A stretch of DNA of 60,765 bases, the filler included, from Dugesia japonica (lineage: Eukaryota): assembly GCA_001938525.1 (NCBI GenBank). It is 5 parts of 5 records of this genome, joined end to end, with 100 filler letters (N's around TTAATTAATTAA, not from the genome) between each part and the next. Parts side by side here need not be neighbours in the genome. Positions count along the whole stretch, not along the records: positions 1 to 10,055 come from MQRL01573860.1; 4 more parts are not named here. One strand, written 5' to 3'. Of the stretch, positions 183-45,736 are shown piece after piece. A model generated the notes under the pieces. It did not search any database. It was not told the DNA's origin and saw only the letters and a list, made by a program, of their open reading frames with translations. Every line of letters begins with the position of its first letter. Position 1 is the first letter of the stretch. Both the position numbers and the translations under genes were made by a program.

Positions 183-242
183 ATGGAAATGTTCCCATTA
201 GGTCATGAAGTGGACATAGACCGAAAATCGTAGCTGGCATGA
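183..242 (+). pseudogene. Orphan cassette gene Z, C-terminal remnant (first cassette copy)
   Basis: Translates MEMFPLGHEVDIDRKS*LA*. It aligns with VEMFPLRCLVNIDSEHYSSA* ending at 5447; both end GCA TGA and lie just upstream of a gene A copy. Confidence 0.5.
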
Positions 243-373
243 TAAATTTTGGTATTACTTGAATGAATAAAGTTTTGTATAATTATTACTTCAATGATTC
301 TGTAATAATTAAACTATATCTAATAAAGTATATTTCGGTGTTCATAACCAGTAAATGACTATTTAATTTTTAG

Positions 374-709
374 TGAATTTCCAATGAGAACAAATCTGGG
401 ATCGACAGACCCAGTGAGTGGTTTTCAGGCACCAAATAACTCCTACAATAGGGACACCGGCGTGCTAGCAGACCGTTCTAACTTGGGGGTAATAGAAGCG
501 GTAGTCGAAAGAATACGAGATTTCGGAGTCAGAACTTTTATTTCTCGGGCGTTCTTCCATGGAGTTTGGTGACCCAATTTTCCTATGGGACTCCACCAGC
601 TCCCACTGGAGTAAGAGCAGCCATTAATAATCTACTATGGCAAATTCAGGAGTCTGAGAACCCTGCAAACTCTGAAAATTCGGAAAACATTGAAAACCCT
701 GGAAATTGA
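374..709 (+). pseudogene. Orphan cassette gene A (first copy), with stops and frameshifts
   Basis: Follows a tttttAG acceptor. Frames give EQIWDRQTQ*VVFRHQ / NSYNRDTGVLADRSNL / TQFSYGTP..RAAINNLLWQIQESENP, then AATAAA at about 727. Homologous to 5600-6045 and 7815-8090. Confidence 0.6.
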
Positions 710-970
710 TATTGATGTTGTTTGAAATAAATGAAGTTGTTTAATTAGTAGCCTAATTGAGACTTTTGTTTCATATCTGGTCATTCTCCTTAGGTTTAGC
801 ATTTGAATAACTACGGTCATCGTAATCTGACATCCTTTTACTTTCAACTATTTTTGTAACTGTAACAGAAATTGCCTGAATTACAACTTAGTCCGTTTTC
901 AGTAATCAATAATCTGATAATCATTGTCGTTGTTTAGTACATTCGTCACTTAATCGATCGGTCGCTCCCA

Positions 971-1297
971 ATGAAAAGATCCGTGAAGACAGTGAGGACA
1001 TCGACATGTCCAGTGAATTTGTACAGGCTAGCAAAGAAAAAGTAGGAAGCCGACACTGCCACGGCAAACGCCAAATCTAAGCGGTATAAAATCAAATGCC
1101 GGGAATACCGACTTGAAGCCGAGGCTTCCCATACGCAAGAATGAGTTTGGAAACGGCAGCTAGAAAGCTTAGCGGAGATGGTAACGTCACTTCATGAACG
1201 AGAAAGTAAATTGGTAGCAGACATTCTATCTCTCCATAAGAAAATACCACTAGAGCCACTTATATTCGATAAATTCACCCAGACCTCCTGTTCCTGA
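971..1297 (+). pseudogene. Orphan cassette gene B (first copy), small helical protein with two internal stops
   Basis: MKRSVKTVRTSTCPVNLYRLAKKK*EADTATANAKSKRYKIKCREYRLEAEASHTQE*VWKRQLESL..KIPLEPLIFDKFTQTSCS*. Homologous to about 8370-8688 and followed by AATAAA. Confidence 0.6.
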
Positions 1298-2199
1298 AAT
1301 AATTATTATGACTACCTTTTGCAAATAAATTTAGTTCCAATTCGAATAAATAAAGTTGTTTCACTTTGCAAACTTCCTTCTAATCTTAATTTTTATTGTC
1401 TCAAACCTAACTTAATACCTAATTGATAATTATGTTTTCTATTTAGTGCCGAGAATACGCCTTTTATGCGTTTGATTTATTTTCAGATATTTTGATAAAA
1501 AAAACAATAATAGTCATACGATATGATTGCGAAGTCAAAATTGATTTTATCAATCACTACGCCTAAACTTATGTATTGAAGCAATGTTAAATGAGAATTG
1601 ATAAAATGAGGAAAAAGAGAAAATTTATTGATCATATTATTTAATAATCTCATAAAACACTTACACCACGGATTTAAATCACGATAATTGAATAGAATTA
1701 TTTATAAAAAGTTAATAATTAAAAAAACAAATAATCGTTAATTTCAATTAAATTTGCATTCTAAATTTATATTTTAAATACTTCAATAACGATTTAATTT
1801 TACGTCAAAAATAAATTAATATTTTCTAAAACTTTTAATCGTAGATAGTTTAAAAACCATTTTTGAAGGAAAAAAAATTTGTAATTGAAATTTTTGTATT
1901 ATTGTTAGTAAAAAATATATTAAAAAAATATTTCATTGCAAATTTCAACATATATTACAAATCCTATGTTGTTTAAAATACTTTAAAAATAACTTTATTA
2001 AATATAACTAATCTTTAAAAACATTTTAATGATCAAGAATTTAATATACTAAGAGTTTGTAAAAAAAATATTTCTAGAACAATTTTTCTAGAAAATATAA
2101 TGACTACAATTAATAAAAAGATCAATGGAAAAGAAAATGAAAACCTCAGATAAACGAATCCAACTCTCATCAATTCCAATAATTAAAGGAAATTATTAT

Positions 2200-2990
2200 A
2201 GTATTAATAAAAGATAAGCAAATGATCAGAAAATAATAATTAATTAATGAAGAAAAAATTAACTAATTTATTGTAAAAAAGAATTAAATTTAGGCAAAAA
2301 TCAGTTTTGATCGAATATCTCCGCCCAGGAAAATCATGGAGACTTGGAAGAAGAAAATCTCAAAAGAAAATATTTAAGGTCAAAAGGATTGTCTAACAAG
2401 AAAATTCCATCATTATCAGATGGACCCTTACAAAGATTTGAAGTGTGGGCTAATAAGGGGCCAGAAAAGAAACATAAAACAACGACCAGAAAATCACATG
2501 ATGAATTAAAAATAGACACCAAAAGAAGTTCTAAAAATCTTAGAAAAAATCTGGAAAAAAAATGGCACCATCGCAATGAGTAGCAAGAATTTCAAATTAA
2601 AAATAGCAGGTCAATATCGATGATGCCGGGTTGTATCAAAAATGGCATATATACCCCCCGAAATTTAGAAGAAAAAACATTAAAAATTTTCATTTACTCA
2701 GTGTAAATCATTGCGTAAAACGTTAACTCCGTTGCATAATACGACTTGTGAACATAAATTGAGAAACGTTCAAAAAAAAATTTCAACAGTTTCAGTGGTT
2801 TATTTATTGTGTGAATAACCAGCGAAATTATTAAATACATTTTAGAAGATTAAAATCGTGACTATCGGACCAGAAATCGACAGAGAAAACAGTTCTGATT
2901 CAGAGAAAAAAATTAAAAGCAATAAAATCAAATATTAAAACAACATCAAAAAGCCTAGCAACCCAACAACAATAATAATAATAATAATCA
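2200..2990 (+). repeat. Degenerate Lys/Asn-rich dispersed repeat family (copy 1)
   Basis: Nucleotide-level similarity to 4000-4620 (-), 6760-7060 (+) and 38170-38560 (-), e.g. gctaataaggggccagaaaagaaaca vs gccaatgagaggatagaaaagaaaca vs actaatgagaggccagagaataaaca. Boundaries are approximate. Confidence 0.5.
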
Positions 2991-3049
2991 TAATAATAAT
3001 AATTATCATAATAATTATGATTATAATAATAATCATAATGATCAAAATC

Positions 3050-3096
<47 letters not shown>
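2970..3096. repeat. (AAT)n microsatellite running into an assembly gap
   Basis: Direct reading. Similar tracts occur at about 9995-10055, 17375-17428, 19128-19197, 24460-24479 and 46682-46728. Confidence 0.95.
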
Positions 3097-3999
3097 NNNN
3101 NNNNNNNNNNNNNNNNNNNNNNNNNNNNNNNNNNNNNNNNNNNNNNNNNNNNNNNNNNNNNNNNNNNNNNNNNNNNNNNNNNNNNNNNNNNNNNNNNNNN
3201 NNNNNNNNNNNNNNNNNNNNNNNNAAAAAAATAAACAAATATTAGGGAAATTAATTAAAGTGCGCAATAAGAGAATTACAATGTCCATCTAAAAAACGGC
3301 TCACTCTTTCTTTTCATACATGCCAACTGAATATAAGAAAACAGACATGTGGATCGCGATATTCATCGTGGCCTAACTACTGCCGATTCGCATAATACAA
3401 GCAAAAATTTTAATTTATGATCAGCGTGAGGATGTGGTCTAATGTAGCGTTGAGTGTATTCCTAATATGATCGTTAGGGGGAATCCGTGCCGGTGTATTA
3501 TCTGTTGTGACAACAGTTAGGCAAAGTTATGTAATCGAATGCATATTACCTATCTTATCCAAGCTGGTACTATCTAAAGGGAGTGTGTGTTTCACAGTAA
3601 TGATAACGATGATTGAGGTGATTCCAGAGTTGATAGTGAATAGAGTGTTGACTACGAGATGGTATTATTGTTTCAGCTGTAGTGAAAATTTGTTTGTAAC
3701 AAAAAGCAGAAAGAACTTGCTTCGTTTCTTAAATGTGTTTCNCATCAAATTCTCCTTGTCGAAAATCCTTTAAGGACATTGTCTACAATGTAGATACAAT
3801 TTAATGAGTGTGGACAATTATTAAGCCAGTTAGTATCGCCGCAAAAAAATTTATGGATCATAATATAATTAAATAAATAAATAAGCATTGGTATATGTNN
3901 NNNNNNNNNNNNNNNNNNNNNNNNNNNNNNNNNNNNNNNNNNNNNNNNNNNNNNNNNNNNNNNNNNNNNNNNNNNNNNNTTGAATTCGCTTGACAAAAT

Positions 4000-4620
4000 T
4001 CTCCTGATGGTTTCTTAATTACTAATTCACTCGTTGAAATTGTGGGTTGATCTCGTTTCCTTTGGTAAATAATCCGATTGATTCAATACTATAATTGCTT
4101 TGCGAACGTTGATGGTTTTACACAAATAATAACACTGATTTAAATTGAAAAATTGCAGAACAATTGACTAAAATTCAGGAGGTTTAAATAGTATTTCTAT
4201 TGACACCCCGATTTGCTTGGCATTAGCCAGCTATTTTTAATTCAAACTTCTGATTTTTCGATGGCGTTGATGCTAATTTTCAGAATTTTTAACAGGTTTT
4301 TTGGCATTCTATTGGTGCCCATTTTTGGAATGGCACATGATAATAATTTCTTTGTTCTAATTATATTTTCAGGTTTGTCATTGCCTCAATCTTCAAATCC
4401 CTGCTGAAGGTCTCCAGATCATGGTTGAGATTTTTAATAACAAAATTCCAATGCCTTAACCGAAATTCTTCTGAGATTTTCTTGAGCCCTCCTCCTGTGA
4501 TTATCTGGAGCGAAGTTATTGGCATAAATTGAATTTTGGCGCAATTTTAATTTATTTTTTTAGTTTAAATTAATTAATTTTTTGTGTAATTATTTATGCA
4601 ATTATTTCCTTCATAATTAT
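4000..4620 (-). repeat. Degenerate Lys/Asn-rich dispersed repeat family (copy 2)
   Basis: The reverse complement matches 2280-2800 in order (caagaaaatctcagaagag, ggcaatgacaaacctgaaaa, tatttaaacctcctgaattt, cagtgttattatttgtgtaaaacc). Confidence 0.45.
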
Positions 4621-5272
4621 TATTTCATCTGCTTATTATAATTGATCCGATTTAATTTAATCATTCGAGCTCTTCGTCTTCATGTTTTGTTCGTTTGATA
4701 ATATGATCTTGATTTTCATACTTGCTATTCTTAATATTTTCCTTCCCGCAGTATTACTCTTTACCTTCTTATGATAATGGACGATTTATGACCCCCTTTG
4801 ATCCTATTTCTCTTTCAACTTGGTCTTTCACCCCAACATTATTAATATTATAATAATTACCATCATCATTATTGTTGCTATGATTATAAAAATCATTATG
4901 ATTATTACTCTTATAATAATATCCATTATTATTATCACTATGATTATTAGTTTTATTATTATTATTAGATACTATCATTATTAGAATTAACATAGTTATT
5001 ATCATCGTTCTTATTGACTCGGATGTTATTTCGACTAACATCAATTTTCCTATCCACGCTAATGTGACCATTAGTTCCACGTATTATTATTTCTACTAAT
5101 ACTAATTTCACTCTCAATGATAACACTATTGGCAATAGTAATGATTTAAATGAACCAGTATTAGCACTAAGTCTAAGGCTTCAAGTTTTAATGAGAATAA
5201 CCTATATTAGTTAATTAAGAGGTTCATAGTTAGATCGAGGTACGATCCATCTTAAACCTTATATTATTTAAG

Positions 5273-5447
5273 ATATGCAGGGTGGATTGAGGAAGGACCT
5301 GCGGACCATCTCCGACAACTCATCGGCCACTTGTTATTTCCCGACTTAGTGGAACACCCCGACGAAACGGACTTACAGTGTTTCGTCGAGATGTTTCCCT
5401 TAAGGTGCCTTGTAAACATTGATTCGGAACATTATTCATCAGCATGA
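5273..5447 (+). pseudogene. Orphan cassette gene Z, last exon (second cassette copy)
   Basis: Open frame YAGWIEEGPADHLRQLIGHLLFPDLVEHPDETDLQCFVEMFPLRCLVNIDSEHYSSA* after a possible 33-bp GT-AG intron (5240-5272). Confidence 0.5.
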
Positions 5448-5599
5448 AGTTTTGACATCGTTTAGTGGTTTACTTTATTTTTGAAAATATAATTTCTGTT
5501 TTTACGTAATCGTTTATTGATCTTAATTCATATTTAAAATATTGATTATCGTTATAATTTTCTTGACTGAATAACCATTGCTTTATAATGTTATAGTAG

Positions 5600-6045
5600 T
5601 GGAACACAAATTGGAGGTCGTGCTTGATCGACGAACTGGCCGCACGATGTTCAAACGTTACAGAAACCTGCATAATTGAGATGATGGGGTACTTATCGAT
5701 AGGGCAAATTTGCCTGCCGAGGATATAGACGACGAGAAAGAATGAGACGCCAATGAGCGGCGAGCATATTATGAGTGGAACGGACCAGAGCGCAACCGTG
5801 TGGTCTTCCCCACGACTACCACCATCCAAACAAATACAAACGGAGAGACACAGGTTATCCGGACATGGCACGAAGGATCATCCGTTACAGGTCTTACTAC
5901 AAATCGGCTACCNTCCTTTTCTAACCAGAGTGCATTCGTGCAGGATCATCTTTGGAGTATCCGAAACTCGGAAGATAGTAATGCCCTGAGAGCTGTCTTT
6001 ACCCCAGCCCTGTTTTTTCTACCCCAAACTCAGGTAGAACTATAA
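5600..6045 (+). pseudogene. Orphan cassette gene A (second copy; longest, single frame with two stops)
   Basis: EHKLEVVLDRRTGRTMFKRYRNLHN*DDGVLIDRANLP..*..VFPTTT..QDHLWSIRNSEDSN..VEL*. Includes the ORF-track entry 5800-6045. Confidence 0.6.
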
Positions 6046-6759
6046 CACAATTAACAAAACTCAAATATTTAGATGATTTTAATTGCTTTTTGATGTGGTC
6101 AAAGAAACTTTGTTGGTGTTAGGAGCNAGCTTCTAACTAACAGTCACATAAAAAATAACTTTAAAAGTATTAAGTTTATCTAATTAACAAATAAACACCG
6201 ATCAATATTGATTTTTAAAAAATCTTGATTGTAAACCTTCTAATTTACATTAAAAAATTTACTTTTTACCTTACCAAGATTTAATTAAATACTTAAATGG
6301 AATGGTTAAAATTATGTAGTTTTTATCTTGGATTTAATAGATTCTGCGTACGAACAAGGAAGGGGTCTCAACTGAATACGTACGTATGCAAAAAATTATA
6401 TTTATCCTTTCTCTGTCCTTCTGACAGAGCGAAGATGCCGTTGGCCCTCCAAGCGTCAACTAAACAAGCATTTATAGTAATGCAACTTGATTATAAAGTC
6501 AGGTTGCCAGATCATTACCTATTGCTAATCGTCATAAATTAATGTTAGGGTGAAACTCGAGATTAAAGATGAAGATTCAACCAAGGACTCAAATATGGGG
6601 CGGTAAAAAGAAGGAATGAAACAGGGGTACTAAGTAAGAATAATTATTATTCGGACAATAAATTATAATAATTAATCAACGAAAGATCGGAGGAAAAATC
6701 TAAATGAATGAAGAAACGACAAGAATAATAAAAATAATAATATCAAAGCAAACTTAATT

Positions 6760-7060
6760 ACCGGAATTATAATTTATAATCGAGATACAAGAAAATTTTT
6801 ATTAAAATTATAATTAAAATAAAAAGAAAAATTAACAAATTTTCTTTGAAAAAAAGAAATCAAATTACGTAAAAATCTTTCAAAGAGGAATATCTTCCCT
6901 CAGGAGAATTGGATGAAGTTTAAGAAAGAAAAACTTGAAAGCTAATATTATTAGGGGAATTGAATTTCTCAATAAAAAAGCCTTATCATTAACAGAAGGG
7001 TCAAGAAAAGGAGTTAAAAATCAGGCCAATGAGAGGATAGAAAAGAAACAAAAAACAAAG
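6760..7060 (+). repeat. Degenerate Lys/Asn-rich dispersed repeat family (copy 3)
   Basis: Colinear similarity to 2200-2490. Confidence 0.45.
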
Positions 7061-7814
7061 TCATAAGTTATTCTGCGTTTAGAAGATTGATAAGGTAGAG
7101 TGATGAGTCAGCATAATCAACAAGTAATTCTGTTTTAATTCAAGATAAATAAAGCATTCATCCAAATTTAAATTGCACTACCCGATAAAAAGAAAATATA
7201 TTTCTATTTTGATTTCTATTTATGATTATAGACCTGTAATTATTACTTGTGATTAATAATTAGCTGGGGAAATTTGCGTTTAGTTTTATAAAGACTATAA
7301 TACTTGTTATAGATATTTTGTTTTTATTTTTAATAAATTTAGATAAGGAAGTGGATTTTGACAGTTTTAGAAATTTATTAGCCTCAAACTTACTGTATAG
7401 ACATACGACATTATCCTATTAATTATCTTTTATATAAATTTGTCCTCTTTAGAACAGTTATGTCCAATATTCTTAGTCACATTAAAATTCATTTACCAAA
7501 AGAGAAAGATCACGGAGAAAACAATTAATAGGGCACCTACTATTTTCCGAAAAGATCCTCTCACCACATGAAACTGACCTTCAGTGTTTTTAAGAACTGT
7601 TTTCTTTCCCATGGGAGGTGGATTTATATCATACTTCTTGACGTTGTTGGCTAGATAACTCTTGTCCATCATATTTTCTAATAAACAATAATCTCTTTTG
7701 TACCTGTAATGGAAACACTTAATAAATTTAAAATTGTTAATTTTTTGCGGAGTGATCCGTTAAAACTTTATTTGGTAGATTTTTCCTTGACTAATGTTAG
7801 AATATTTATTTCAG

Positions 7815-8090
7815 TGGAATACAAAAAATAAAAGATATTCAAACCCCCATAACCGTGACGCCGGGGTGTTAACAGATAACTCTAATCTACCCCATGTCAA
7901 CGCAAAGGTCGCACGAATGAGAAACTACGAAGAGTGACGTAGCTTTTTTAACTGGAGTGTTCCGAATCGTACTCTACCCACACGATTCGTGTACGAAGCA
8001 CCAATGACCACTACCAAAGCACGGGCAATTATTGATAATTATCTGAGTAGTATCAGAGAATCAGTAGACCCAGAAAATACCGAGAACTAA
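7815..8090 (+). pseudogene. Orphan cassette gene A (third copy)
   Basis: After a tttcAG acceptor: EYK..KRYSNPHNRDAGVLTDNSNLPHV..TRFVYEAP..RAIIDNYLSSIRESVDPENTEN*. Confidence 0.6.
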
Positions 8091-8369
8091 ACCTGCTGTC
8101 ATTTGTTATGGGCATTATTAAATATTGTATATTATGGTCGTTGGTGGTTAATTGAGCNNNNNNNNNNNNNNNNNNNNNNNNNNNNNNNNNNNNNNNNNNN
8201 NNNNNNNNTTTTTTTTTAATTCGTTCACTAACATTTTTTATATGTAATTTCCGTTGGACCTTAGCAATCAATTGTGCTCTTAATTAAAAATCAGTCTATC
8301 ATCATTGTTCTACGATTAATAAATAATAGCATTTTGTTTAGTAAATTCCTCTACTACCGGTCTACCGCC

Positions 8370-8688
8370 CACTCTAAGAAGACAGTGAGAATATCGAAAT
8401 GTTCTGGGATCTGTATAGTTTGGCCAAAAGGAAATGAGAGGCAGATACGGCCAATGCTAACTCTAAGGTAAAACTTTACAAAAACAAATGCCGTGACTAT
8501 CAACTTGAAGCTGAGGCTTCCCACGCACATGAACGCGTTGGAAGCGACAAATGCCGTCTATTGCAAATGTTATCCAGTCCCTCTATGACCCAGAAAATAA
8601 ACTGGTATCTGATCTCCTAGACATGCGTAAGCGGATCCCTTTAGAGCCGCTTATGATTGACAAGACAGCTCAAACCTCTAGATCATGA
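8370..8688 (+). pseudogene. Orphan cassette gene B (third cassette copy)
   Basis: KKTVRISKC..LYSLAKRK*EADTANANSKVKLYKNKCRDYQLEAEASHAHERV/WKRQMPS..KRIPLEPLMIDKTAQTSRS*, with frameshifts. Confidence 0.6.
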
Positions 8689-8959
8689 ATATGCGTATTA
8701 TCAAAACGAATGTTGATTGTCTTTTGATGTCAAATAAATTCATTTACTTGATAATTCTTTTTGCATTGTTTATTTGACAGTCTTATGTATTTGAACTTGT
8801 TAACTGACCATTTACTATCTATTTTTATTTAGTGGCTAGAATACGTCTTATCAATAGACCTCTAAAACTTATTTGAGGTGCACATACCTCTACCTTTGAT
8901 TTGGGTTCGATGTTTTCCCTTTAAAGATATTTGTCAATTAAAATTTATTTAGTTTGAAA

Positions 8960-9290
8960 TTACATAATAACGAGAGATCCCGGGTCTAACCACTGGGTAG
9001 ACTCTTCAGGTGAAAAATTAAACGCGCCATCATCATCGTTGTCATCCCAACGAATCCACATCTTATTTCCTAATTGACTAGATAAACCCGATATGTACCA
9101 TTGCAAGAAGTCAATTTTGTGCTGAAGAACCTGTTTAATCTGTTCCGCCAACTTGCTCTGCTTTTTTGCTGTGGTCGAGCTTCTTAATTGTTTCAGGTGT
9201 CATAACAAGGCTCTTTCATTTTGTCGCTTAATGTGACGTTCCAATAACAATTTTTGAATGAGACGATGGCACCTCCGGAGAATGGTGGTT
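8960..9290 (-). pseudogene. Orphan ORF D, convergent on the cassette
   Basis: The frame extends upstream of the ORF-track entry through one stop: TILRRCHRLIQKLLLERHIKRQNERALL*HLKQLRSS..LAEQIKQVLQHKIDFLQWYISGL..WIRWDD. Coding-like GC content. Confidence 0.3.
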
Positions 9291-9995
9291 AAACGAATAC
9301 GTGGCGCGATACAGATAATAATTATGAGATTAACAAATAGACTGAGTGAATTAAATTCAATTGAATAATAAGAATAGCTATCAACTAGATAATCAAAAAC
9401 AAATCAATTCACAATCAAGGAAACTTATATTTACAAGAGAAAACAGATTTGCGTATTCTTATAAACCATCAACGGCTCGAGTGGCATGCACTTCTTTAGA
9501 GTTAAAGTATCTGAGACCAGTTCATTTTCACGGTCATGGAGGGATATGATGATCTCTGCGAAAGACTAACTGGGTCTTCTAGAGTCTCTCCTGAGCGTGG
9601 GAAGCCTGTTTCTTTTCGAAACTTTGTCGTCAGCTCCTCGAATGCAATAACGGCAAAGGAATAAAAATCGAATGATGATAGCAATTCGGTATTCGTACCC
9701 AAAAGGATACTACGATTAAAACCTTTATTTGGATCATAACTCACGTGCTTATATCAGTAATAATAATATTATTACAGATACTATAATTTAATGGAATTCA
9801 TCAATCTAATACTAAGCAAGTCACGAATAAATTTTATTTGTGAAAGATGATGAGATCGATGCCATAATGCTAAAATAATAACGAGAATAACGAGGAAATC
9901 AATAATTCATTGTTAGTATCAAGAATAATATTAATAATAATAATAATTAATAATAATAAAACCCATAATAATTAGTAAAAATAATAATCATAATT

Positions 9996-10155: not shown

Positions 10156-10859
10156 TAATAATAATAAAATTAATAATAATAATGAAAGAACGTTTAAATG
10201 GATGCATTAAAATTCTGTCTGTAAAAACTAATTTAATGCTAAATTCTAATATATTAATAAAATTAGAAATAATATTTAATATAAAAAACAATACTCTAAG
10301 ATTAATTTTTCTGAAACGGTTTTGATTTTTTATTGAATGTTTGATACAATCATCTTGTTCAGATTTGAATTGATGATGTCATATATAACAAGAAAAGTTG
10401 TCCTTATTAATGACCTTGTTAATTGGTTACGGTAATCTAACTTGGTAACTGATTCTATAAAACAAAATCACGCTGATCCCAAGTATTATGAATCCATTAA
10501 GATATTATCATACATAACGGATTATTATGTAATAAATTTAATTAACTATTCTATATCAACAAAAGCTTTCCTAAATTTGATAATTAAAATTAAGATACAC
10601 TTAAAACCAAATTATTGATAAAATCAAGTAATAATACGCAATAATGAAGACAGATTCTATCTCTACTTCTTTTTTTTCAATAAAAAATAAAAACAAAAGA
10701 AAATATGCCTGTGTTACTTGACTAATTTGAAATTATTGATTACGTAATGGATATTTTCTATTGGTGTTTTGTAAATTCATTACCTGACGCATTGCAGCAT
10801 TTATATTGAATCAAGTAAGCATTAATTTTTATTTTTTTATTAATTAATTTTTTATAACA

Positions 10860-11693
10860 ATGAAAATTTTGCCTGTGATTGGTTCATTAATATTGACAAT
10901 GTTGTCAATGATAATGCTTTGTCATTGTAAATACGTTGGTGAGTTTACTGAAAGTAAAATTTATCGGCTCGTAAAAAACAGTGAATCAAATGGTATATTG
11001 GTTAAAAATTCAGCGGAAAATATTAATCCAATTTTATTTAATGATCTGATGCCGGAACCTCATAGTTTAAATGAAAATCGATTGAAAAGGATTTTGGGAG
11101 ACAGACTGAATACGATTTGGACGTCTATTAAAGAACCAGTTAATATGGACCAAAGAATTGAACAATCCTATGATTCTATGCTAGAAATCCTGGCTGATTC
11201 GTTAAATTTCACAGAGATTAGAGGTGAAAAACTTTCCCTTTATGCTAAACGACTGCTGCAAAACTGGTTGGTGGATAAGTCAACATGTAAAATTAGATAT
11301 CACTGGGATGATCTTGGTAAATTGTTTTGGCCACGATATCTCAGAAAAGCGATTTGTGTTAATTCCATATCTAATTCATGTTCTTGGCCGCCAGGCATGA
11401 AATGCACACTTTCTGTTCCTGTTCCTGTGCACCACTTGAGATGGACATGTTATAAATCCGAAGAACCACTATATCACAAAAGGCAAAAACGTCAAAATCG
11501 TTTGTATAGAAATGTGAAGAAATCCCACAGAAAAAGACAAATCAATCCGTTATGGAGTCCAGAAAAAAGAGTAAAGCAGTTACGAAAATTATTAAGAAAA
11601 ACCAGCTTATGGAAAAAGGGTTACAATTGCCAATGGAGAATAAATGAAATCAGCCAACTGAGCACTTGTAAATGTGGATGCGAGAAATCGTAA
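10860..11693 (+). CDS. Noggin-like secreted cystine-knot protein (nlg type), intronless
   Basis: Signal peptide; C..W.DLG.LFWPRYLR...C, SCSWPPGM.C, LRW.C, C.W and CKCGC match the nine noggin cysteines. A 59-aa basic insertion between C5 and C6 is the noggin-like hallmark. Confidence 0.92.
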   Translation: MKILPVIGSLILTMLSMIMLCHCKYVGEFTESKIYRLVKNSESNGILVKNSAENINPILFNDLMPEPHSLNENRLKRILGDRLNTIWTSIKEPVNMDQRIEQSYDSMLEILADSLNFTEIRGEKLSLYAKRLLQNWLVDKSTCKIRYHWDDLGKLFWPRYLRKAICVNSISNSCSWPPGMKCTLSVPVPVHHLRWTCYKSEEPLYHKRQKRQNRLYRNVKKSHRKRQINPLWSPEKRVKQLRKLLRKTSLWKKGYNCQWRINEISQLSTCKCGCEKS

Positions 11694-14191: not shown

Positions 14192-14579
14192 CAATGTTCC
14201 CTATAACTTTTTATGGTAATGCGCAGAAAAATGTTACTTGGGGAACTTTTTTTAAGTTTGGGAAAATTTGAGAGCTCATAATTTTCTTTTTATTGACATT
14301 ACAATTAAAGACCAGACACTAGAGCAACTTTATTTTTACCAAATAACTTTAATATAAAGCATACAATATCATAATTATGTTTTTGATTACTATTACTATT
14401 GACTTACTATTTTTGATAATTTTAGTTTATAAGACTAATTTTAAATGGCAAATGTTTTTAGAAAAAATAAAACTTAAATAATGTAGTAAAATGAGTTAAA
14501 ATTACATTTTTATCATACTGTATTCTGTGCGCGGCAAATAATTTTTACGAAATTTGCGCGCAACTTAGAGGGAACATTG
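14192..14579. mobile_element. hAT-type MITE
   Basis: TIRs CAATGTTCCCTATAA / TTAGAGGGAACATTG; flanks actgtaat / actgtatg. Confidence 0.7.
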
Positions 14580-15444
14580 ACTGTATGATTTGCATTCTTT
14601 GAAATTACTAAGACTTTTATTCAATCTATCANNNNNNNNNNNNNNNNNNNNNNNNNNNNNNNNNNNNNNNNNNNNNNNNNNNNNNNNNNNNNNNNNNNNN
14701 NNNNNNNNNNNNNNNNNNNNNNNNNNNNNNNNNNNNNNNNNNNNNNNNNNNNNNNNNNNNNNNNNNNNNNNNNNNNNNAACTGAATTTGTAATTTCAGTA
14801 TATTATCAATTCGTTTAGGAAATATGACGTAATCTCGATGTAATTAATTTGCAGTACAGAAGTTTCAAATCAATTAATAACGGAAAATAATTTATTAATT
14901 AAATTATTAATCATTTACTTACAAACATTTTTCGAACAGCACTAAATCTACTTTNNNNNNNNNNNNNNNNNNNNNNNNNNNNNNNNNNNNNNNNNNNNNN
15001 NNNNGTAGTAAAATGAGTTAAAATTACATTTTTATCATACTGTATTCTGTGCGCGGCAAATAATTTTTACGAAATTTGCGCGCAACTTAGAGGGAACATT
15101 GACTGTATGATTTGCATTCTTTGAAATTACTAAGACTTTTATTCAATCTATCACACAACCAAATTACCATACTCTTCTCAATTGCAATACTATATAATTA
15201 AATTAAACTGGAAACTTTTTAATTTTTACATTTTCAAACAGTCATGTTACAGTTTAACCCTATGTCCATTCAGAAATTAAGCCTACCTTTTTCATAAATG
15301 AACTGAATTTGTAATTTCAGTATATTATCAATTCGTTTAGGAAATATGACGTAATCTCGATGTAATTAATTTGCAGTACAGAAGTTTCAAATCAATTAAT
15401 AACGGAAAATAATTTATTAATTAAATTATTAATCATTTACTTAC

Positions 15445-15806
15445 AAACATTTTTCGAACAGCACTAAATCTACTTTTACATATAACTTCCCAAGCTCCAC
15501 GTTCTAAATAATCATTATTCACATAGAGATAATAATATTTCAACTTTCAAGTATGGTTTTCTTTTGAGGACTAAGTGCTACAGTCTTGTTGGAAAATGTT
15601 GGCATCTGAATATAATTTTTATGTTTCTAGGATTCAAGTACTGCTACACGTTTTGATTTTAAATTAGATTCAGAACTTATTAGTGATGCTAATCCAAATC
15701 CAATAGGACCACTTCTTACTATACACACATCATAATGTGCACCAAAAGAATAATTTCTTTTTGAAATGAAATTACAATTTTTTATAATTTTAAAAGTATT
15801 TTTCAT
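15445..15806 (-). pseudogene. COQ6: COQ6-like FAD monooxygenase, first two exons only, with an in-frame stop
   Basis: MKNTFKIIKNCNFISKRNYS (mitochondrial-type leader), YDVCIVRSGPIG (decayed GxGxxG), VAVLES*, FSNKTVALSP, a short intron, then RGAWEVICKSRFSAVRKMF followed by GTAAGT. TAG at 15627-15629. No downstream exon is recognisable. Confidence 0.72.
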
Positions 15807-17428: not shown

Positions 17429-18114
17429 NNNNNNNNNNNNNNNNNNNNNNNNNNNNNNNNNNNNNNNNNNNNNNNNNNNNNNNNNNNNNNNNNNNNNNNN
17501 NNNNNNNNNNNNNNNNNNNNTTATTATTATTATTATTATAACTTCAGTTGAACAATTACTCAGTCAGATTGATATACAAAAGGAATGAATATATTTAAAT
17601 GATTAAAATATGTAATAAATAATGAAGTAATTAGTGAAAAATAAATGAAGAAAAATTAATTAATGTAACTTAAATATTATACAATCGCTTTGTCTTTATT
17701 AAAAACTTAATAAACTTGTAATATTAATCGGCCCATAGCAACTGATTCGATAGTATTGAGTTATATCACATTTAAACAGTTGGGTACGTAACACATCTAT
17801 ACTCATACATTTATTTATCAAGAAACATGTCACAATAACGTCTGCATATTAAAAATAAATTATATTAACAACAAAATTATGAAATCATGAATTTAGGCTT
17901 TGAGATTTCATCTTTTTATCGATATTTTGTAATTCTAAAACAATAGAAATATTGCATGCGTATTTATCTGCCAATATTAAATCTCTGCTTATGCAATCAT
18001 ATATTTTATTGGTGTATTTTATGGATATCAGCTGATTTATCGCAACATTTTCATTCTTAACCAGCAAGCATTTTTTATTTGTTTTTTATTTGAAATATAA
18101 TTTTGACAACATTG

Positions 18115-18933
18115 ATGATAACTTTGACAGTGATTCTTTCATTAATTTTCTTGATATTTTCAGTTTCAATTAATTGCGACTGTTTAGGAGAATATAATGA
18201 AGAAAAAGTTTACATTAGAATACCACAGAAAATAAAGAATCGTATCTCTATGAAAGTTCTTGGTCAGCAAATAGCTCCTTTAGAAAATGATTTTATGCCT
18301 CCATTATACAGTCTTAATGAAATTAAATTATTTAAAATCCTCGGAGACAATTTAGATCCTTTTTGGTCATCAGTTAACAAACCGGTTGTCCAAAACGATA
18401 ATAGATCATTATCGTATGATCCGAGGCTAGAGCAATTTCTAGATAAATTGAATATTACTCATGTAAAGGAAGAGAAAATATCTGAAAATTTAAAACAACA
18501 AATCGAAAACTGGTTGTTGGATAAATCAACTTGTCAAATAGAATATTTCTGGGAGGATCTGGGAAACTTATTTTGGCCTCAATATATTAGACGAGCAAAA
18601 TGTGTGAACTTCAATTTCAGGTCTTGTTCTTGGCCACCAGGAATGAGATGTAGGCTCGGAGGAAAAAAACTAATTCATTATCTTCGATGGAGTTGTTTTG
18701 AAACAGATCAATCAGAAATTCAAAACAGACGAAAACGTATTAATTTTAAACGTAATAGAAACCAAATAAATAATAAACAATCCAATTTGCGTTCATTTTG
18801 GAAACCGAATAAAAGGAAAAGGCGATTGAAAAATTTGATTAAAAGTACAGGAATTTGGAAAAATGGATACCGATGTGAATGGAGAATCAAAAGAATAAAT
18901 ATTTCAAATAGATGTGAATGTGGTTGTGAATAA
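18115..18933 (+). CDS. Noggin-like secreted cystine-knot protein (second tandem paralog), intronless
   Basis: First ATG at 18115 (the ORF track starts at TTG 18103). Signal peptide; WLLDKSTC, WEDLGNLFWPQYIR, SCSWPPGMRC, LRWSC, a 59-aa basic insertion and CECGC. Confidence 0.92.
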   Translation: MITLTVILSLIFLIFSVSINCDCLGEYNEEKVYIRIPQKIKNRISMKVLGQQIAPLENDFMPPLYSLNEIKLFKILGDNLDPFWSSVNKPVVQNDNRSLSYDPRLEQFLDKLNITHVKEEKISENLKQQIENWLLDKSTCQIEYFWEDLGNLFWPQYIRRAKCVNFNFRSCSWPPGMRCRLGGKKLIHYLRWSCFETDQSEIQNRRKRINFKRNRNQINNKQSNLRSFWKPNKRKRRLKNLIKSTGIWKNGYRCEWRIKRINISNRCECGCE

Positions 18934-21479: not shown

Positions 21480-23923
21480 GCTTACATGGATTTTGAACAC
21501 AATCAACATTAAATCGCCATGTAGCTCTATGTACATCAAATACCGAGAATACAACATTATATAAAATGCANGAAGAAAAAGAATTGAAATTTAAAGATTA
21601 TGGAAAAACAATAACACCGTCTTTCGTAATATATTCAGGTATTGAAGCTGTTCTTATACCAGCAGAAGATAGTAATCTAGTAAAGCATGTGCTAATAGCA
21701 ATAGGTCTTTTATTAATTCAATTACTGGATACAACAATAAAATGCAAGTACTATTCGTTTTCGGTGAAAAACTGTATGATTCAGTTTCTGCAAATGAATT
21801 GTCATAAAATGTAGTAGCCTTTTGGTATAAGAAAAATATGTATGCGGAAATGAAGTTGATAGCATCAGACCAGGAAGCCTTTACGACAAGCATACACTAT
21901 TACATGCCCGGAATCAATAAAAACAATGAGGTTCGTGATCATGATCACAATACTGGAAAATAACTTGGAGTTCCATTCAATCAATAAAATTTATCATGCA
22001 ATGGTTAAAATGGAGTTACCGGTCGTGTTTCATAACTTTAAAGGCTACGATTCACATCATATCATTAAATATGCGCTCAACCGATTTTCGAATTAGGATC
22101 TCAATCCAAGCGCACAGACAACTGAAAGGTTTTCTAGCAATATTTGCACATAATGGAAAACATGTTACGACACGATTTATCGATTCATTTCAGTTTCTCA
22201 GTTCTAGTTTAACAACTTTGACAAAACACTTGAAAGCTGGCCAATAACATCAACAGAATTTCTACGTGTACAACAAAAGAAGGGTATATTTCGATAAAAA
22301 TTTGCAAGTTCATATGAAATGCTCATTAATCAAACCGAGTTTCCAGCACATTGGTCAGAAATAACAAGTGAAGAATATGAAGTGTCAAAGTCAGCATGCA
22401 TAGAATCGAGAAGTAATAACTTGTTGGAATATATGATGTATTATATGAAGTTAGACATATACTTATTGGCAGAAATCTTCCAAAAATCCCGTACAAAACC
22501 ACTTGAAGAGCATGGATTGGAGCCGCTACGATTTGTTTCAATATCAAGATTGAGCTGGTCAAGTGCTCTCAAATCGATGGATAAACCAATAGAATTACTC
22601 CAAGATGCTGAAATAAACTGTTTATTTGAGTTGGAAATTCATGGAGGAATTAATTTTGTGAACAGACATTATGTCCAGGCAAATGAGAATATCTCACTGT
22701 TTTACATTGATATTAATAACCTGTATGGTTTGGCCTGAACACAGCCTTTACCATATAGAGATTTTGAATTTATATCAGAAGATCAGATAGAAAAAACATG
22801 CCAGAAGATGTTCATTAATGACAATAATGAGATTCGGTATCTGCTTGAAATTGATCTTGAAATACCGAAGGAACATCATAATAGATTAGATCAATTATCT
22901 TTGGCTCCAGAACATAAATGGCCTCTGGATCAAAAGTTAAGAGGTTTTTGATGACACATGAACCAAAACGACATTATATCGTATATTGACGATTATCGGA
23001 ATTATATATAAAGCTCGGGCTCGTTTAACTGCAGTATATAGAATAATTCAGTTCAAACAAACTATATTAATGCAAATTCAGCGAGAAGAGCAGAATCAAA
23101 GTACAAATTTGAAAAGGACTTCTACAAACTATTAAATAATTCGTTATATGGTTAGACAGTAGAGAATTTGAAAAATCGAATGTATTTCAGGCTATGTAAT
23201 AATGAGAAGAAACCTGTAACTTACACTGCCAAAGTTACATTTAAGAAAACAATGGATATCGCAAGAGGACTCAAAACTGTATTGTTTGAAAAAGATACCA
23301 TTTGTCTCAATAAATCGAGTTATATTGGCCAGGTGGTTCTGGATATGAGTAAATTGCGAATGTATAGGCTCCAATATGAAGAACTTGAAAAATATCGTCA
23401 ACAATTTCATTGCAAAATTGATATTATTGCTGGAGGCACGGATAGTTTTTTCTTATCATGTATCGGACTAGATAAAAACCAAATTTTGTCTCAGTTAAGA
23501 TAGGTTAGTCTCATGGATACAAGCAATTACCCTTAAGATCATTCCCTCTATTCCAACAATATGGCCAACAAAATTGGATTGTTTAAAGATGAAGAAAAAG
23601 GTGAGGATTATACTGAATGGGTATTCCTTAGGTCCAAATGTTATAGTTTAAAGAAAGAAGATGCTAGTACAACGATGAAGGCGAAAGGTATCAGTTTAAA
23701 ACAAACAGATATCAATCATCAAAATTATTTAAATGCATATAACAAAGATGAGGACGTAGAAGAAGAACCAAATAAAGTTATGCAGACTAGCTTCCAATCA
23801 ATAAATCACCAGATTTACACAATAGAGAGTAACAAACGCGTATTGTCTTGCCTAGATGATAAGCGCTTTTGGAGCAAAAGAAATACTAGTTTGGCCTATG
23901 GTCATTATAAAATTGATAATTAA
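21480..23923 (+). mobile_element. Polinton/Maverick protein-primed family B DNA polymerase, pseudogenised
   Basis: Across frames: YSGIEA (ExoI-like), RDHDHNTGK*LG, FHNFKGYDSHHI (ExoII), RFIDSFQFLSSSL, YIDINNLYG (motif A), YKLLNNSLYG (motif B), AGGTDSFF (motif C), GLFKDE, LRSKCYS, KAKGI and DDKR..LAYGHY. Many stops and frameshifts. Confidence 0.9.
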
Positions 23924-24541: not shown

Positions 24542-26014
24542 TTAATTAATTTTATTATATTCATCAAATCTTTTACTTTTATCCATAACATAATCCAATT
24601 CTGTATCACTCTCATCAGCGTTTTGAAATAATTTTCTATTTTTCGTTTCATAGGGTAAAAAAATACCGGATATACTACTCATAATATTTACACAGAAAAA
24701 TATCAATGAAACTGTAAATAAGGAATATTTGATCATTAAAATATTAACGACAAATGATGAAAGTATTCCACCTAATTTTGCAGCAGAATTACAAATTCCA
24801 AATCCAATACTTCTAACAGTTGTTGGGAATACTTCCTCTGTATAAATGTAAGCCAAATTATAAACAATAAAAGCTGATCCTCTGAGAATCAATAAAAGAA
24901 TACTTAAAGCCACCGACGGCATACAAACATTTAAAAGTAAAAAACAAACAGAAACAATCAATGACAAAATAAAAAGACAAAGTTTCCTTCCGAACATATT
25001 AATCAATATAAATGTTATTAACATAAAAATGAGTTCACCCGTTGTGGAAATATAGGAATCTTTAATCGTCTGCCATGAAATTTGTAAACAACAGGAATTA
25101 TCATTTGATGAATTACTTTGATATAATAAAGGAACATTAATAAAATTAAAATTTCTAATGCACTGTCGTGGAAATTCGTTAATTTGCGAAATCAATAAAA
25201 TAATCCCATAATACGTTAATCCATCTGTGAACCATATATAAAACGTTATAAAAGTTGTAGATAAATACTTTTTATGAAGTAAATCTTTTATTGATGAATT
25301 AACTTTAACGGCTTCGTCAACATCTATGATTTTTACAGAATTATTTAATTTCGCCATTTTATTTAGAATAACTACAGCTTCATTTTTACGATTGTTTAAT
25401 AATAAAAATCTCGGAGATTCTGGTATCCAAAATACAAAAGGCGTTATTATCATGAAAGGTAAAATCGAAATTAATAAAAACCACCTCCAACCATAAATTG
25501 GAATGATAAAATAAGCATTAGTTATCACATAATATTCTCCGATAACCCAAGATCCCAATAAGACAGTAATTAAATTACCCCGCTGTTTACTTGACAAAAG
25601 TTCTGTAACCAATGTAAATAAAGAAACATTAATTCCACCTGAACTAAATCCAATAAAACATCGTAAAAGAATTAACCATTCTATTGTCGGTGTTAGAGCA
25701 CACAATATTCCAATATAGAGAGTACACACACTTGATATCAACATAATTGGTTTTCGNCCAAATTGATCACATAACTTACCGAAAATTAACACACCAAATA
25801 TCAAACCTATAAATAATGAGGTTGTTAGTAATGGTAATTCGACAATATTGATCATCCATTGACACGTTAAAACTGGTCCTAAAAACGATAAAAGCATAGT
25901 TTCTGTTGATACACAAGATTCTAAAAAGCAGCAAATTACAATAAGAATAATTTGAAATTTTCCAAATCCAATTTTATTGATTGAGTTTTCCAATGTTTCA
26001 TATTTAAGTTCCAT
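24542..26014 (-). CDS. MFS transporter, SV2-related (SVOP-like), intronless, 490 aa
   Basis: IGFGKFQ N-terminus, G.LCDQFxRK motif A, GWRW, PESPRFL, FGRK and YTEEVFPTTVRSIGFG; about 12 hydrophobic segments. Confidence 0.9.
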   Translation of the reverse strand: MELKYETLENSINKIGFGKFQIILIVICCFLESCVSTETMLLSFLGPVLTCQWMINIVELPLLTTSLFIGLIFGVLIFGKLCDQFXRKPIMLISSVCTLYIGILCALTPTIEWLILLRCFIGFSSGGINVSLFTLVTELLSSKQRGNLITVLLGSWVIGEYYVITNAYFIIPIYGWRWFLLISILPFMIITPFVFWIPESPRFLLLNNRKNEAVVILNKMAKLNNSVKIIDVDEAVKVNSSIKDLLHKKYLSTTFITFYIWFTDGLTYYGIILLISQINEFPRQCIRNFNFINVPLLYQSNSSNDNSCCLQISWQTIKDSYISTTGELIFMLITFILINMFGRKLCLFILSLIVSVCFLLLNVCMPSVALSILLLILRGSAFIVYNLAYIYTEEVFPTTVRSIGFGICNSAAKLGGILSSFVVNILMIKYSLFTVSLIFFCVNIMSSISGIFLPYETKNRKLFQNADESDTELDYVMDKSKRFDEYNKIN

Positions 26015-35530: not shown

Positions 35531-38169
35531 AGAATATATTTATTTATTTTTCAACCTTATAATTTTTAAAATTTTATATTTTAAAAATTTCAAAATAACC
35601 AATCTTCATATTAAATATAAAAATTAAAAAATCTCAGACATCCGAAATTCATGAATCGATAGTCACAAAACGGATCACCGCTGATAACTATCTCTACCAT
35701 GATTTTTTATAATTTTAATCTCAATAGAGATCCAAATAATAGTATACTAATGATAGTGATAATTCCAGTTGTGTTAGTAGCGATACCGGAATAATACTGA
35801 CGATAACCTTGATAAAATTGACAATTCAAATTAATAATAATAGAGAAACAGAACAAAGATAATTACGTTAATAAAAGTGATATTATACTCGATAAATTTA
35901 ATAAAAGATCGGGCCGTACTAAATCTAACAATGATGACAAACATAATTATATTAAGGATAATGACATTACTAAATATACATTAATAACCACAGCCTAATA
36001 CTGATATCCACTGCAATCGATGGTAATCATTTAGATATCATTAAGCATGTTAATGGTAAAATAAAGTTATTAATTTTTCTGCTAACAATACTGGCTACGA
36101 TAATAATAATGTTAGCAATAGACAATTAAAATTAGGACTAATAGCATTAGAAATTGTGAAATCAACAAACAACATGACAGTGAGATTAATGCTATTTGCA
36201 CTAGTCAAAAAATCCGGTTGTTCGCTCGAGCAACAAAAATAATGCATTGATAATATTCATGTATGCGCAATAAGTTAGACCTCTTCTTTATCAATGAGTC
36301 ATGCCAATATCGATCTCTCCTATAACATCTCCAATTTCTTTAGAATAGAAGTGATGATTATCAGTAGTTGGAAGCGTTGTATCTGCCATTGATTGTCTGC
36401 TAGTCATTGTGAAGAAACGAATTTTTTTGTCACGGTGAATTCACTGTGAGCTATGTTAACAGTGCCAATTGCTAATTGCCTGATAATCCAATTTAGTATC
36501 TGAAAATGAACAACCAAATTGTTAATTTGAAAACATTATTGTTCATGCAATTCATCGAATAGATATGTTAAACTTGCTCGTGGATTATCGTAGTCGTCCC
36601 CAGGTGATAATTTTAAAATGTAATGCATCATGAATAGTCCATATTTAAAAGAGAGTAAAATTAACTCTGATAAAAATGTCATCATCGTTGGATTTTTAAA
36701 TATAATAATTACAGGAATAGACGTAAGTAATTTATTCATTATAATTTTACACTTTAATATTATAATTAAAATTACAACATAAACTATTCACTAGTAATAA
36801 TAATCCTTGAAACAAAGGGAATAATTTGCTACTGAAGATCGATCTCCAAAACTAGTTTTTGTAGACTTTTTGATAATCAATGTCACTGAGCTAAATCGTC
36901 GATTTTTATTCAACAATATTTTTCCTGCAATTTAACCCTTTCTTCCTCTACGTTTATTGAGTATTTCAACTCAACAAAAGATTTTATGGATTGTAATTGA
37001 TGCTAATTATAAAAATAGATAATTGGTTCATGATTTTATAGGTGTTGATTTTATCCCAGTGTATATGTCAATACTATATTATATAATCAATATTTGATGA
37101 TGTAAATAGAGTTATATGGTGTAAATCACCTTATATAAATAAACANNNNNNNNNNNNNNNNNNNNNNNNNNNNNNNNNNNNNNNTACACAAATATGCTTA
37201 TCTATTCACAACTTATCAGCTTAATTTAATTTGACAGAATACTGCTTCCCGTAGAGGTCAGAGTTTCTGCAAATGAGAAAAGTCTGATTAACAACTAAAC
37301 CAATCAGTATTTATACTGATTTCACGCTAGTGGGTTTCATACACCTACTAGCTACTACACAATAATTTTTNNNNNNNNNNNNNNNNNNNNNNNNNNNNNN
37401 NNNNNNNNNNNNNNNNNNNNACGCTAGTGGGTTTCATACACCTACTAGCTACTACACAATAATTTTTCAAAATAAATTCAGATTATTAATAAAAGATTTT
37501 TACATGTTAAAACAAACTCAATAAATTTCAGCATAAAAATAATGTTCAATAATAAAAATAATGTTCAATAATAAATTCAGACTATTAAAAATTTTACCAA
37601 TTAAAACAAAATCAATAAATTTCAGCATAAAATTAAAAACTGTACAAAACAAATAATTGAAACACTATAAAATAATCAACACTGTATAATTCATGAAAAT
37701 AAAATAATCGAAGTAAATAATGTCATAAAAACAATTTCCAATATGAATGTTCATAATTAATATTTGGATTGACATCCTTGAGGCTGGATGATTGAATTGT
37801 ACTTGATGAACTGATTGAGGATTTGAATGATCTAATTGTATTTGACGAACGGATTGAGGATTAATGTGAGGTTATGTTTGCGTGTTGTGCATGCTGTGTT
37901 TTGTGTGTTACAACTGTGTACAGCTGTACCTTAACACGTGTAAATTATTAATTTTCCTGAGATATCCTGCCGTTGATAATTGATTACCTTGTTTTCCGTA
38001 GCCTGGTTAAGTCTTGATTCACACTGATTTATCCAAACAAAACAAAATCTTTTGATTGTGTTTTGTCTAGTTTTTTGTTCAATAGGTTTTTACTGACAAC
38101 CCGGCTTTCACCGTATTGGTGGCTATTTTGGTTTTTGGTTTTGTGACTTTCAAATGGTACTTTCTCTAA

Positions 38170-38560
38170 AACTCTTAAATTTTCTACGATTCCATTTGTC
38201 TTTTATTGGCTTCTATTTTTGGAAGCTTTGTAATTTTGATTCCTTTGTTTTTGTTTATTCTCTGGCCTCTCATTAGTCCAATCTTGATAGCCTTTTTTAC
38301 TAGGGATGATCCGTTTTCTCTGTTAACCAAATCGAATTCCTCATGTTTTTATTTATCGAAATTTTCTTTTCTTGACTTCTTACGATTCGTCTGAGAAAAG
38401 TTATCACCCTTTTTCATATTTTCGACGAATTAATTTTCCTTTTTTCTTGAAAATTAATTAATTTTTTCTTATTATTTCTTTTTTAATTCTAATATTGTTT
38501 TATTATAATAATTAATTTATGATTAATTTATAATTATAAAAATAATTATTAATTTGATTG
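38170..38560 (-). repeat. Degenerate Lys/Asn-rich dispersed repeat family (copy 4)
   Basis: The reverse complement is colinear with 2230-2500 and 6780-7060. Confidence 0.4.
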
Positions 38561-44394: not shown

Positions 44395-45736
44395 ATATTA
44401 TGTTACGGTTGCAATAAGCCGGGTCATATAAAAAAAGACTGCCCATCAACATTCATGAGAAAATGTTTTGAATGCGGATCGATCGAACACATAAGGCGTT
44501 TTGCATGAAGATAAAATGACAAAAGTGTTCACTTAAAGGACATCTGACAAATGAATTTAGAACGTCAAATGGAAAAATTCAGCAGATAAGAAGACAGGCC
44601 AAGTATGATAGACGAAAATTGGGTGATAAAAAATGGGGTCAAATTATAAAAGGTTAACACAGAACAAAACATCAAGACGAAACAATGGACGAAATACCAT
44701 AAACACAGCCAGAGACAAATCCCCTAACAGAGAAATATATGAAAACGAATACGATGATGACGACAGATAAGAAAGAGAATACCACGAAAACAGACACCCA
44801 AATTGGAGGGCTCCGTCAGAAGACGAGATGGTAGGAGCCTTACACTAAACACAATGGAAAATGTTACTCGCAACCGAGGCCACGAGATGAATACTGAAAG
44901 CGGCAGTGTAAGTGACGATAGAAGTAAAAAGAGAAACAGCCAGGATAAAAATCTATAACTGAAAATAATGACAGTTAAAGAATGGAAAGGAGTATAGATA
45001 TCATATGCTAGAATGCAAGGTAGGCCCAGTATTGAGATGGAAATTCAAGACAAGCCACTCAATTGCCTGTTGGACACAGGAGCGAAAATTAACGTGATGA
45101 GCGACAGAGTTATTACAATTGGATATGATATGCTGAATATGCGCGAACTAGTAACATAGGCAACGCAAACATGCAGAAAATTTCAAAAGAATAAAGTATA
45201 TACATCAATAACCGAAGAAGATAAAATAACACTGCAAGCTAATCCTGTATTTGAAAATATCAATATTGACGTATGTGAATCTTTCAAAGAGACACTACGG
45301 AGAAAAAAATACATTCTAGCCATAATAGATCACTATAGTAAATATATATCGTCGTCGGCCTTATGAAGACAAGATGAGGAAACTATATACAAGATAATCA
45401 TGGAAATGGATTATATGGTTTGGAGCACCAAAAGAATTACATACGGATTGCGGGAAGACCTTCGAATCAAAAGCGTTCAATGATATGGCATACAGAATGG
45501 ACATAGAGCTATGTTACTCGAGCCCATACCACTACGGGACAAATGGCTTGGTTGAGAGACAATTCAGAACCATCAGGGACTGTATAAATGCATCTGGAAA
45601 AGCAAATTGGGACGAAAAGATTCCAGAATTAGAGTTCATGATGAACACAACATATCAAAAGACGATTAAAACTAGCACAGCAGCCATGGTGTACGGAAGA
45701 GAGATTCGACGAGAAAGATTTATCGATTATGAAGAC
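44395..45736 (+). mobile_element. Internally deleted Gypsy: zinc knuckles and protease fused directly to integrase
   Basis: CYGCNKPGHIKKDC, CFECGSIEH and LLDTGAKINV. 45113-45736 is a near-identical inverted copy of 40844-41467. Confidence 0.88.

Follow-up and report, generated by a model that had tools for sequence, protein, structure and literature searches.

Four decayed copies of a small-gene cassette

A 60.8 kb stretch of DNA from the planarian Dugesia japonica (the "window") contains, within positions 183-9709, four decayed and incomplete copies of a cassette in which four small genes, termed here Z, A, B, and C, follow one another in fixed order. The cassette is tentatively assigned, with a confidence that stops just short of even, to the likely accessory block of a multi-copy element, most likely a Burro-like Ty3/gypsy long terminal repeat (LTR) element in which the genes would be expressed by splicing to a shared leader. 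Three units lie on the plus strand: unit 1 (183-1470) reads Z'-A-B-C', unit 2 (5273-6045) reads Z-A, and unit 3 (7453-8910) reads Z-A-B-C'. Unit 4 (9709 to ~8960) is inverted, on the minus strand, and reads B-C. Profile searches in all six frames of the window reveal no unit in the remaining 51 kb and no fifth unit.

Homology and past selection

The copies of each gene resemble each other well beyond chance. When each protein pair is compared with 2000 shuffles, no shuffle reaches the observed score in 12 of the 13 within-gene pairs, which bears out the motif homology proposed in an earlier note on this DNA. The sole failing pair is A2 against the 3' piece of A1 (139/2000), and the 16-codon piece of Z1 is matched by 1/2000 shuffles against Z2 and 40/2000 against Z3. 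In four cross-gene control pairs, 258-1755 of the 2000 shuffles reach the score; Z, A, and B are mutually unrelated.

Selection is visible in nine ungapped blocks that can be aligned between copies. Their nucleotide identity is 46-68%, with proportions of synonymous differences (pS) of 0.58-1.14 and of nonsynonymous differences (pN) of 0.14-0.39. The pN/pS ratio is 0.17-0.50 in the proposed frame versus 0.67-2.53 in the other two frames, and the excess of third-position changes is significant in six of the nine blocks, the best of three frames being allowed for. Seven of the nine blocks were also simulated under neutrality, with block edges kept fixed; in all seven, the best of six frames reaches the observed ratio in only 0-3 of 1000 runs. 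Together with the saturation of synonymous sites, these ratios uphold the earlier claim that the copies derive from formerly functional genes, held under purifying selection in different family members. The spacers between genes show little similarity (in seven comparisons, the score is reached by 0-123 of 300 shuffles) and can barely be aligned, whereas the open reading frames (ORFs) are conserved.

Since synonymous sites are saturated, the units are not a local tandem duplication. To judge from this divergence, they come from lineages that split long ago while the genes still worked, and very probably they represent separate subfamilies of one element that inserted here independently and then decayed. 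All four copies are dead; their value is that such deep divergence sharpens the signal of selection. Of note, four units within 9.6 of 60.8 kb have a probability of ~0.014 under uniform insertion, a value calculated post hoc, and this clustering hints at nesting or at a repeat-rich site. CpG depletion does not account for the stops, as there is none overall (window value 1.00).

Gene content of the units

Unit 1 opens with Z1 (183..242, +), a 3' fragment of gene Z with an in-frame stop at 231, the 5' part of which is replaced by an unrelated repeat at 140-179. This short dispersed repeat is also found at 50-88, likewise near the window start, and at 36957-36989 and 49235-49275. A1 (374..709, +) starts with TG after AG and carries stops and two frameshifts (near 435 and 535). 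It is followed by B1 (938..1297, +), with acceptor candidates at 938 (AG/TA, the slash marking the putative splice junction) and 993 (AG/TG) and stops at 1043 and 1142, and by C1 (1447..1470, +), the first codons of gene C after AG/TG, truncated. In unit 2, Z2 (5273..5447, +) has an acceptor-like AG, its own ATG at 5275, an early frameshift, and 58 open codons; A2 (5600..6045, +) has an internal insertion and two stops, and is nearest to the intact relative P0013 described below.

In unit 3, Z3 (7453..7641, +) displays an acceptor-like AG, an ATG at 7460, frameshifts, and one stop, and A3 (7815..8090, +) displays AG/TG, a deletion near its start, and one internal stop. B3 (8342..8688, +) has acceptor candidates at 8342 (AG/TA) and 8386 (AG/TG), a stop at 8435, and frameshifts, while C3 (8833..8910, +) starts after AG/TG and continues until it meets the end of the inverted unit 4, its own end being approximate. 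Unit 4 comprises B4 (9431..9709, -), with AG/TA at 9709, stops, and frameshifts, and C4 (~8960..9306, -), the sole long copy of gene C (~115 codons), with one internal stop, an acceptor that is not intact, and an AATAAA 12 nt past its stop.

The peptides quoted in the earlier note, namely three A motifs, three A C-termini, the B motifs of two copies, and the Z motif, are all present in the sequence, as are the AG/TG before each of the three A copies (374, 5600, 7815) and the common start of C, at 1440 and 8826. Its counts of two Z and two B copies are too low. A tblastx comparison reveals a third Z at 7453-7641, so that the third island begins at 7453 and not at 7815, and an inverted third B at 9709-9431, followed by the long C (~9306-8960).

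Gene boundaries and putative splicing

An acceptor-like AG stands before each gene, 124-252 nt after the preceding stop. Stops line up between copies: a TGA closes both Z1 and Z2 at the same aligned position, and B1, B3, and B4 also terminate at aligned stops; Z and B are therefore not internal exons. This bears on the proposal that a single multi-exon gene, of the host or of a transposase, with Z, A, B, and C as its exons, was duplicated and lost its function. Each block does open at an acceptor-like AG with a T-rich tract, and A, C, and B4 all start in phase 1, as exons might. The aligned terminal stops speak against it, and so do the lack of any conserved donor at block ends in the alignments, the closed 94-aa protein P0013, and the reads on 5200-9800, in which no joint between blocks is found. 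The single-gene explanation, an alternative that the earlier note had raised against itself, is thus very unlikely.

The dinucleotide after the acceptor suggests how A and C were started. TG directly follows AG in all three copies of A and in both copies of C with an intact acceptor, compared with 30 of 401 acceptor-like sites in the window. In the conserved frames of A and C, this TG forms the last two bases of a codon (phase 1). Its third-position G has been kept though other third positions are saturated, which fits a methionine and hence a leader ending in A. The pattern thus fits a start codon of A and C that would be completed by splicing (A/TG), and P0013 begins at the acceptor codon of A. 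Gene Z has its own ATG after the acceptor. In gene B, a T-rich AG/TA site is present in all three copies, and a second site, AG/TG, in two (993 and 8386), within a 12-base block identical in both; it is in frame with the body of B in unit 1. B1 and B3 also display differing stop codons at one aligned codon (1043 and 8435), past which in-frame conservation continues; this may be a functional stop, a read-through site, or two independent hits.

The earlier note had also claimed that several genes are followed by AATAAA. This holds for six of ten stops within 50 nt, versus a background of 21% (p=0.009, the 50-nt range having been picked after looking), but at 100 nt the excess fades (p=0.11), so that the signals lend weak support.

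In the mechanism proposed here, one primary transcript would be made from the mobile element, and a short leader would be spliced to one of several acceptors of the 3' cassette. Each message would end at a local poly(A) signal, yielding four small proteins in all. Fragments of several subfamilies would then accumulate and decay among other repeat debris. It is slightly favoured that a leader ending in A completes the A/TG of A and C, and perhaps of B, while Z starts from the ATG that it already carries and every message terminates at a poly(A) signal of its own.

An alternative origin is an operon of the host whose message is split up by spliced-leader trans-splicing and which multiplied later on. 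Short spacers in which a poly(A) signal precedes an acceptor are operon-like, and such spacers are found here; Z with its own ATG would fit as well. Excerpts of one source report that flatworms trans-splice and that reported flatworm leaders end in a full AUG (PMC12582326). A full-AUG leader would, however, open phase 0, and the conserved frames of A and C are in phase 1, which makes the operon a most improbable origin.

Gene products

Database searches cover A, B, and Z. A profile of A compared with 1.84 billion representatives retrieves one match, P0013 (94 aa, E 1.6e-13), which is the sole database match for A, B, or Z. It is intact, 44% identical to A2, and of one-gene length, and it is a singleton from an ENA contig of 512 nt, devoid of context. 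Searches for homologues, limited to near lengths with fused forms excluded, retain 0/1 candidate for B1 alone, 1/540 for the A alignment, which is P0013 itself, and no candidate for the Z alignment. The earlier note had recognised no domain, and in agreement with this, Pfam (A, B, and Z pieces, and P0013), PHROGs (nine proteins), and PDB sequence searches return nothing above cut-off. The ESM Atlas yields no usable match for Z2 or P0013, and both fold searches yield 0 matches at E 0.001. In JGI metagenomes, P0013 scores 0/599 and the Z motif 0; in IMG/VR, P0013 scores 0/19.

The IMG/VR candidates were all rejected. L001 matches a phage in antisense and by chance, L002-L014 have only the typed motif in common with the query (12 of these 13 being one protein with unrelated flanks), and L015 matches a 7-residue word only.

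The model of B, built from a five-row alignment, is one long helix spanning residues 14-91, with a predicted local distance difference test score (pLDDT) of 85 and a predicted template modelling score (pTM) of 0.45. Every seventh residue reads W-L-L-L-L in B1, W-I-L-L-M in B3, and F-L-L-L in B4. Basic leucine zipper (bZIP) proteins have a basic region of the pattern N-x7-R/K, with a leucine ten residues further on. By eye, B does not fit this spacing, and no Pfam bZIP family is retrieved at E up to 1; B is thus zipper-like, not bZIP. The model of A is unusable (pLDDT 53). The three starts of C share x-R-I-R-L, encoded by differing codons. A suspected resemblance between C and the front part of Polinton polymerases is unsupported when C is compared with the polymerase debris of the window. 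The products are possibly, if somewhat doubtfully, small proteins that regulate the element or the host cells, and B would be a coiled-coil adaptor.

Copy number and expression

Read data cover positions 5200-9800 only, with unit 1 lying outside. The 24 sequencing runs listed all bear a single organism label. In run X7, which consists of contigs and probably contains DNA, 347 contigs map to this range: 16 at an identity of at least 99%, 28 at 95-99%, and 303 below 95%. Among the 19 of 133 loose-end rows listed, contig groups of 10, 30, 7, and 10 share the Z core (5348-5399) and diverge outside it. Dozens of further diverged relatives of the cassette are present in contigs of the same organism, in line with the earlier suggestion that the block moves together and is multi-copy.

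From three runs of raw RNA reads, sampled at 6, 25, and 25%, 17, 63, and 16 reads map to the same range. None is 99% alike, and one per run is 95-99% alike; nearly all come from diverged relatives, with small clusters of such reads at the Z core and at the zipper of B. Some relatives of the cassette are transcribed at a low level, while at this depth the three runs show no sign of transcription of units 2-4.

The carrier element

The chance is judged to be even that the cassette sat within or beside the 3' LTR of an LTR element, from where solo LTRs would scatter it devoid of gag-pol; such a carrier is favoured over a Polinton. Pairwise alignments of the units reveal no common end, all units being truncated. 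Nothing in the window fixes the class of the carrier, and membership of an element family is unproven.

The same truncation affects the view that the cassette belongs to a non-autonomous or undescribed class of element, which would possess only these small genes and borrow its enzymes. None of the four units adjoins an enzyme gene, and all the proteins tested are orphans except for P0013, as such a class would predict. The absence of enzymes means little when all units are truncated, however, and an autonomous element would more readily account for purifying selection that acted on four genes over a long time; a borrowed-enzyme element is accordingly held to be improbable.

The earlier note had suggested a large DNA element or an endogenous virus, pointing to the Polinton debris of the window, or else an unknown class of element. 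In the Polinton case, the cassette would be the accessory block of a Polinton/adintovirus-like element, expressed from one leader through a choice of acceptors and poly(A) sites in the manner of the major late unit of adenovirus. An acceptor and a poly(A) signal for each gene would suit a DNA element, and excerpts of one report describe Polintons as active targets of PIWI-interacting RNAs (piRNAs) in planarians (PMC8532177). A decayed gene for a protein-primed-type DNA polymerase B does lie at 21497-23923 (+), where Pfam DNA_pol_B_2 scores E 4.7e-4, under the cut-off. This debris lies, however, at a distance of over 11 kb from the units, and tblastx matches it to none of them. Beside the four truncated units, there is no terminal inverted repeat (TIR), capsid, ATPase, protease, integrase, or protein-primed DNA polymerase B (pPolB), and self-comparison of the window reveals no TIR pair around them. 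Furthermore, IMG/VR and BFVD yield chance matches only, and no real relative of Z, A, or B is found in IMG/VR, PHROGs, or BFVD. The suggested link to a Polinton or a DNA virus is not supported. Nothing here points to a Polinton over an LTR element, and a Polinton carrier is considered unlikely; should it be one after all, the cassette would reveal an adenovirus-like transcription plan in such elements.

The assignment to a spliced LTR-element cassette has its own difficulties. None of the units has a terminus, target-site duplication, primer-binding site, gag, pol, or env linked to it, and the gypsy debris of the window (28-47 kb) has no tblastx match to them; solo LTRs would likewise display no adjoining gag-pol. 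No leader exon or donor has been found, nor any spliced read or leader-to-AG/TG joint in the three RNA runs (6-25% depth, 5200-9800). The five TG sites represent two homologous groups and not five independent events, and the initial M of P0013 may be a GTG start set by the gene finder. In gene B, TA rather than TG comes after the better-looking acceptor, the phase of which varies among copies. Poly(A) signals in a sense-strand LTR cassette would tend to shorten the genomic RNA. On the side of selection, the third-position excess is not significant in three of nine blocks (p 0.07, 0.10, and 0.30), and the block edges derive from tblastx.

In its most far-reaching form, which at present seems rather unlikely, the LTR-element reading would describe an invertebrate retroelement with a complex-retrovirus-like cassette of at least four orphan micro-proteins, one of them leucine-zipper-like. 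Several genes would receive the initial base of their start codon from a shared leader, whereby splicing would gate translation, and selection would have kept the block across synonymously saturated subfamilies. It would provide specific splice junctions to seek in existing RNA data from knock-downs of the piRNA pathway (PMC8532177).

Genomic setting

The window is animal DNA with gaps and a GC content of 28%, and its composition of more than 70% A/T fits the planarian genome as characterised in parts of PMC11410931. Besides the cassette units, it contains two noggin genes, an MFS transporter, RPB5, Gcd10, and saposins, together with debris of pogo, mariner, gypsy, and Polinton-type elements. 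The polymerase debris is located at 21-24 kb and the gypsy debris at 28-47 kb, the latter including two integrase fragments (40844-41467 and 45113-45736) in opposite orientation and 98% identical.

A coding-like repeat is present in four copies of 66-72% identity, at 2230-2610 (+), 4227-4596 (-), 6804-7058 (+), and 38243-38494 (-). Three of them sit between cassette units, and the repeat has no Pfam match; we take it to resemble the front of a Penelope-type ORF, although it could alternatively represent one more gene of the cassette, located upstream of Z in unit 3. A decayed frame at 3240-3900 (-), with no Pfam match in three frames, looks by eye like a Penelope-type reverse transcriptase.

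The two noggin genes (10848-11693, +, and 18094-18933, +) are intronless, and each has a long basic insertion near its C-terminus, which fits a planarian host. The DNA upstream of both is homologous (10690-10894 vs 17937-18149, 67%). The transporter gene, of MFS sugar-transporter type, is also intronless and occupies 24542-26014 (-), with 490 codons. The blocks at 14483-14954 and 15005-15476, which flank gaps, are 100% identical and probably reflect an artefact of assembly. Finally, a tandem duplication of ~800-950 bp (83% identity) is found at 55207-56956 between saposin-like exons, with shorter copies reaching 59052.

Comparison with known systems

The accessory ORFs of Polinton/Maverick elements and the common-leader units of adenoviruses are composed of small genes in tight succession, and every gene has an acceptor and a poly(A) signal, as in the cassette. 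They differ from it in that no core gene or TIR is linked to the units here and no viral relative has been found. Small spliced genes near the 3' LTR are known in complex retroviruses, as exemplified by MMTV sag, HIV nef, and foamy virus bel. The cassette has no detected sequence similarity to complex retroviruses, and B lacks the canonical spacing of a bZIP basic region. One of the accessory proteins, HTLV-1 HBZ (PMC3391691), is leucine-zipper-like, as is B in the cassette.

For the start codons, the nearest parallel is the env gene of springer-subclade Drosophila errantiviruses, the start codon of which is likewise completed by short-leader splicing (10.1101/2023.08.03.551782, in part). There, the junction is AU/G, concerns one gene, and was mapped experimentally; in the cassette, it would be A/TG, would concern two or three genes, and is deduced from DNA alone.

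For the carrier, the closest counterparts are the giant Ty3/gypsy LTR elements of planarians, Burro and GYPSM1 (PMC6431247), compared here by description only. They are alike in likely host group and high copy number, and display regulatory-type accessory ORFs and decayed fragments with stops and frameshifts, as here. In contrast, they possess MATH, BIR, BCL2, and ankyrin domains in or upstream of a polyprotein of 4,873-5,140 aa, and their description names no row of orphan genes of 60-115 aa. The parts of PMC13524379 consulted make no mention of Burro or of accessory genes. No description of such a cassette emerged from the literature searches, although Repbase or the library of Grohme et al. 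2018 could already contain its ORFs.

Elsewhere among invertebrate LTR elements, accessory genes are mostly single enzymes or fusogens, according to PMC5408684. By analogy, the cassette would function in the way that complex viruses use their spliced accessory regions; if so, it would bring the gene control of a planarian element near to that of complex retroviruses and add four protein families.

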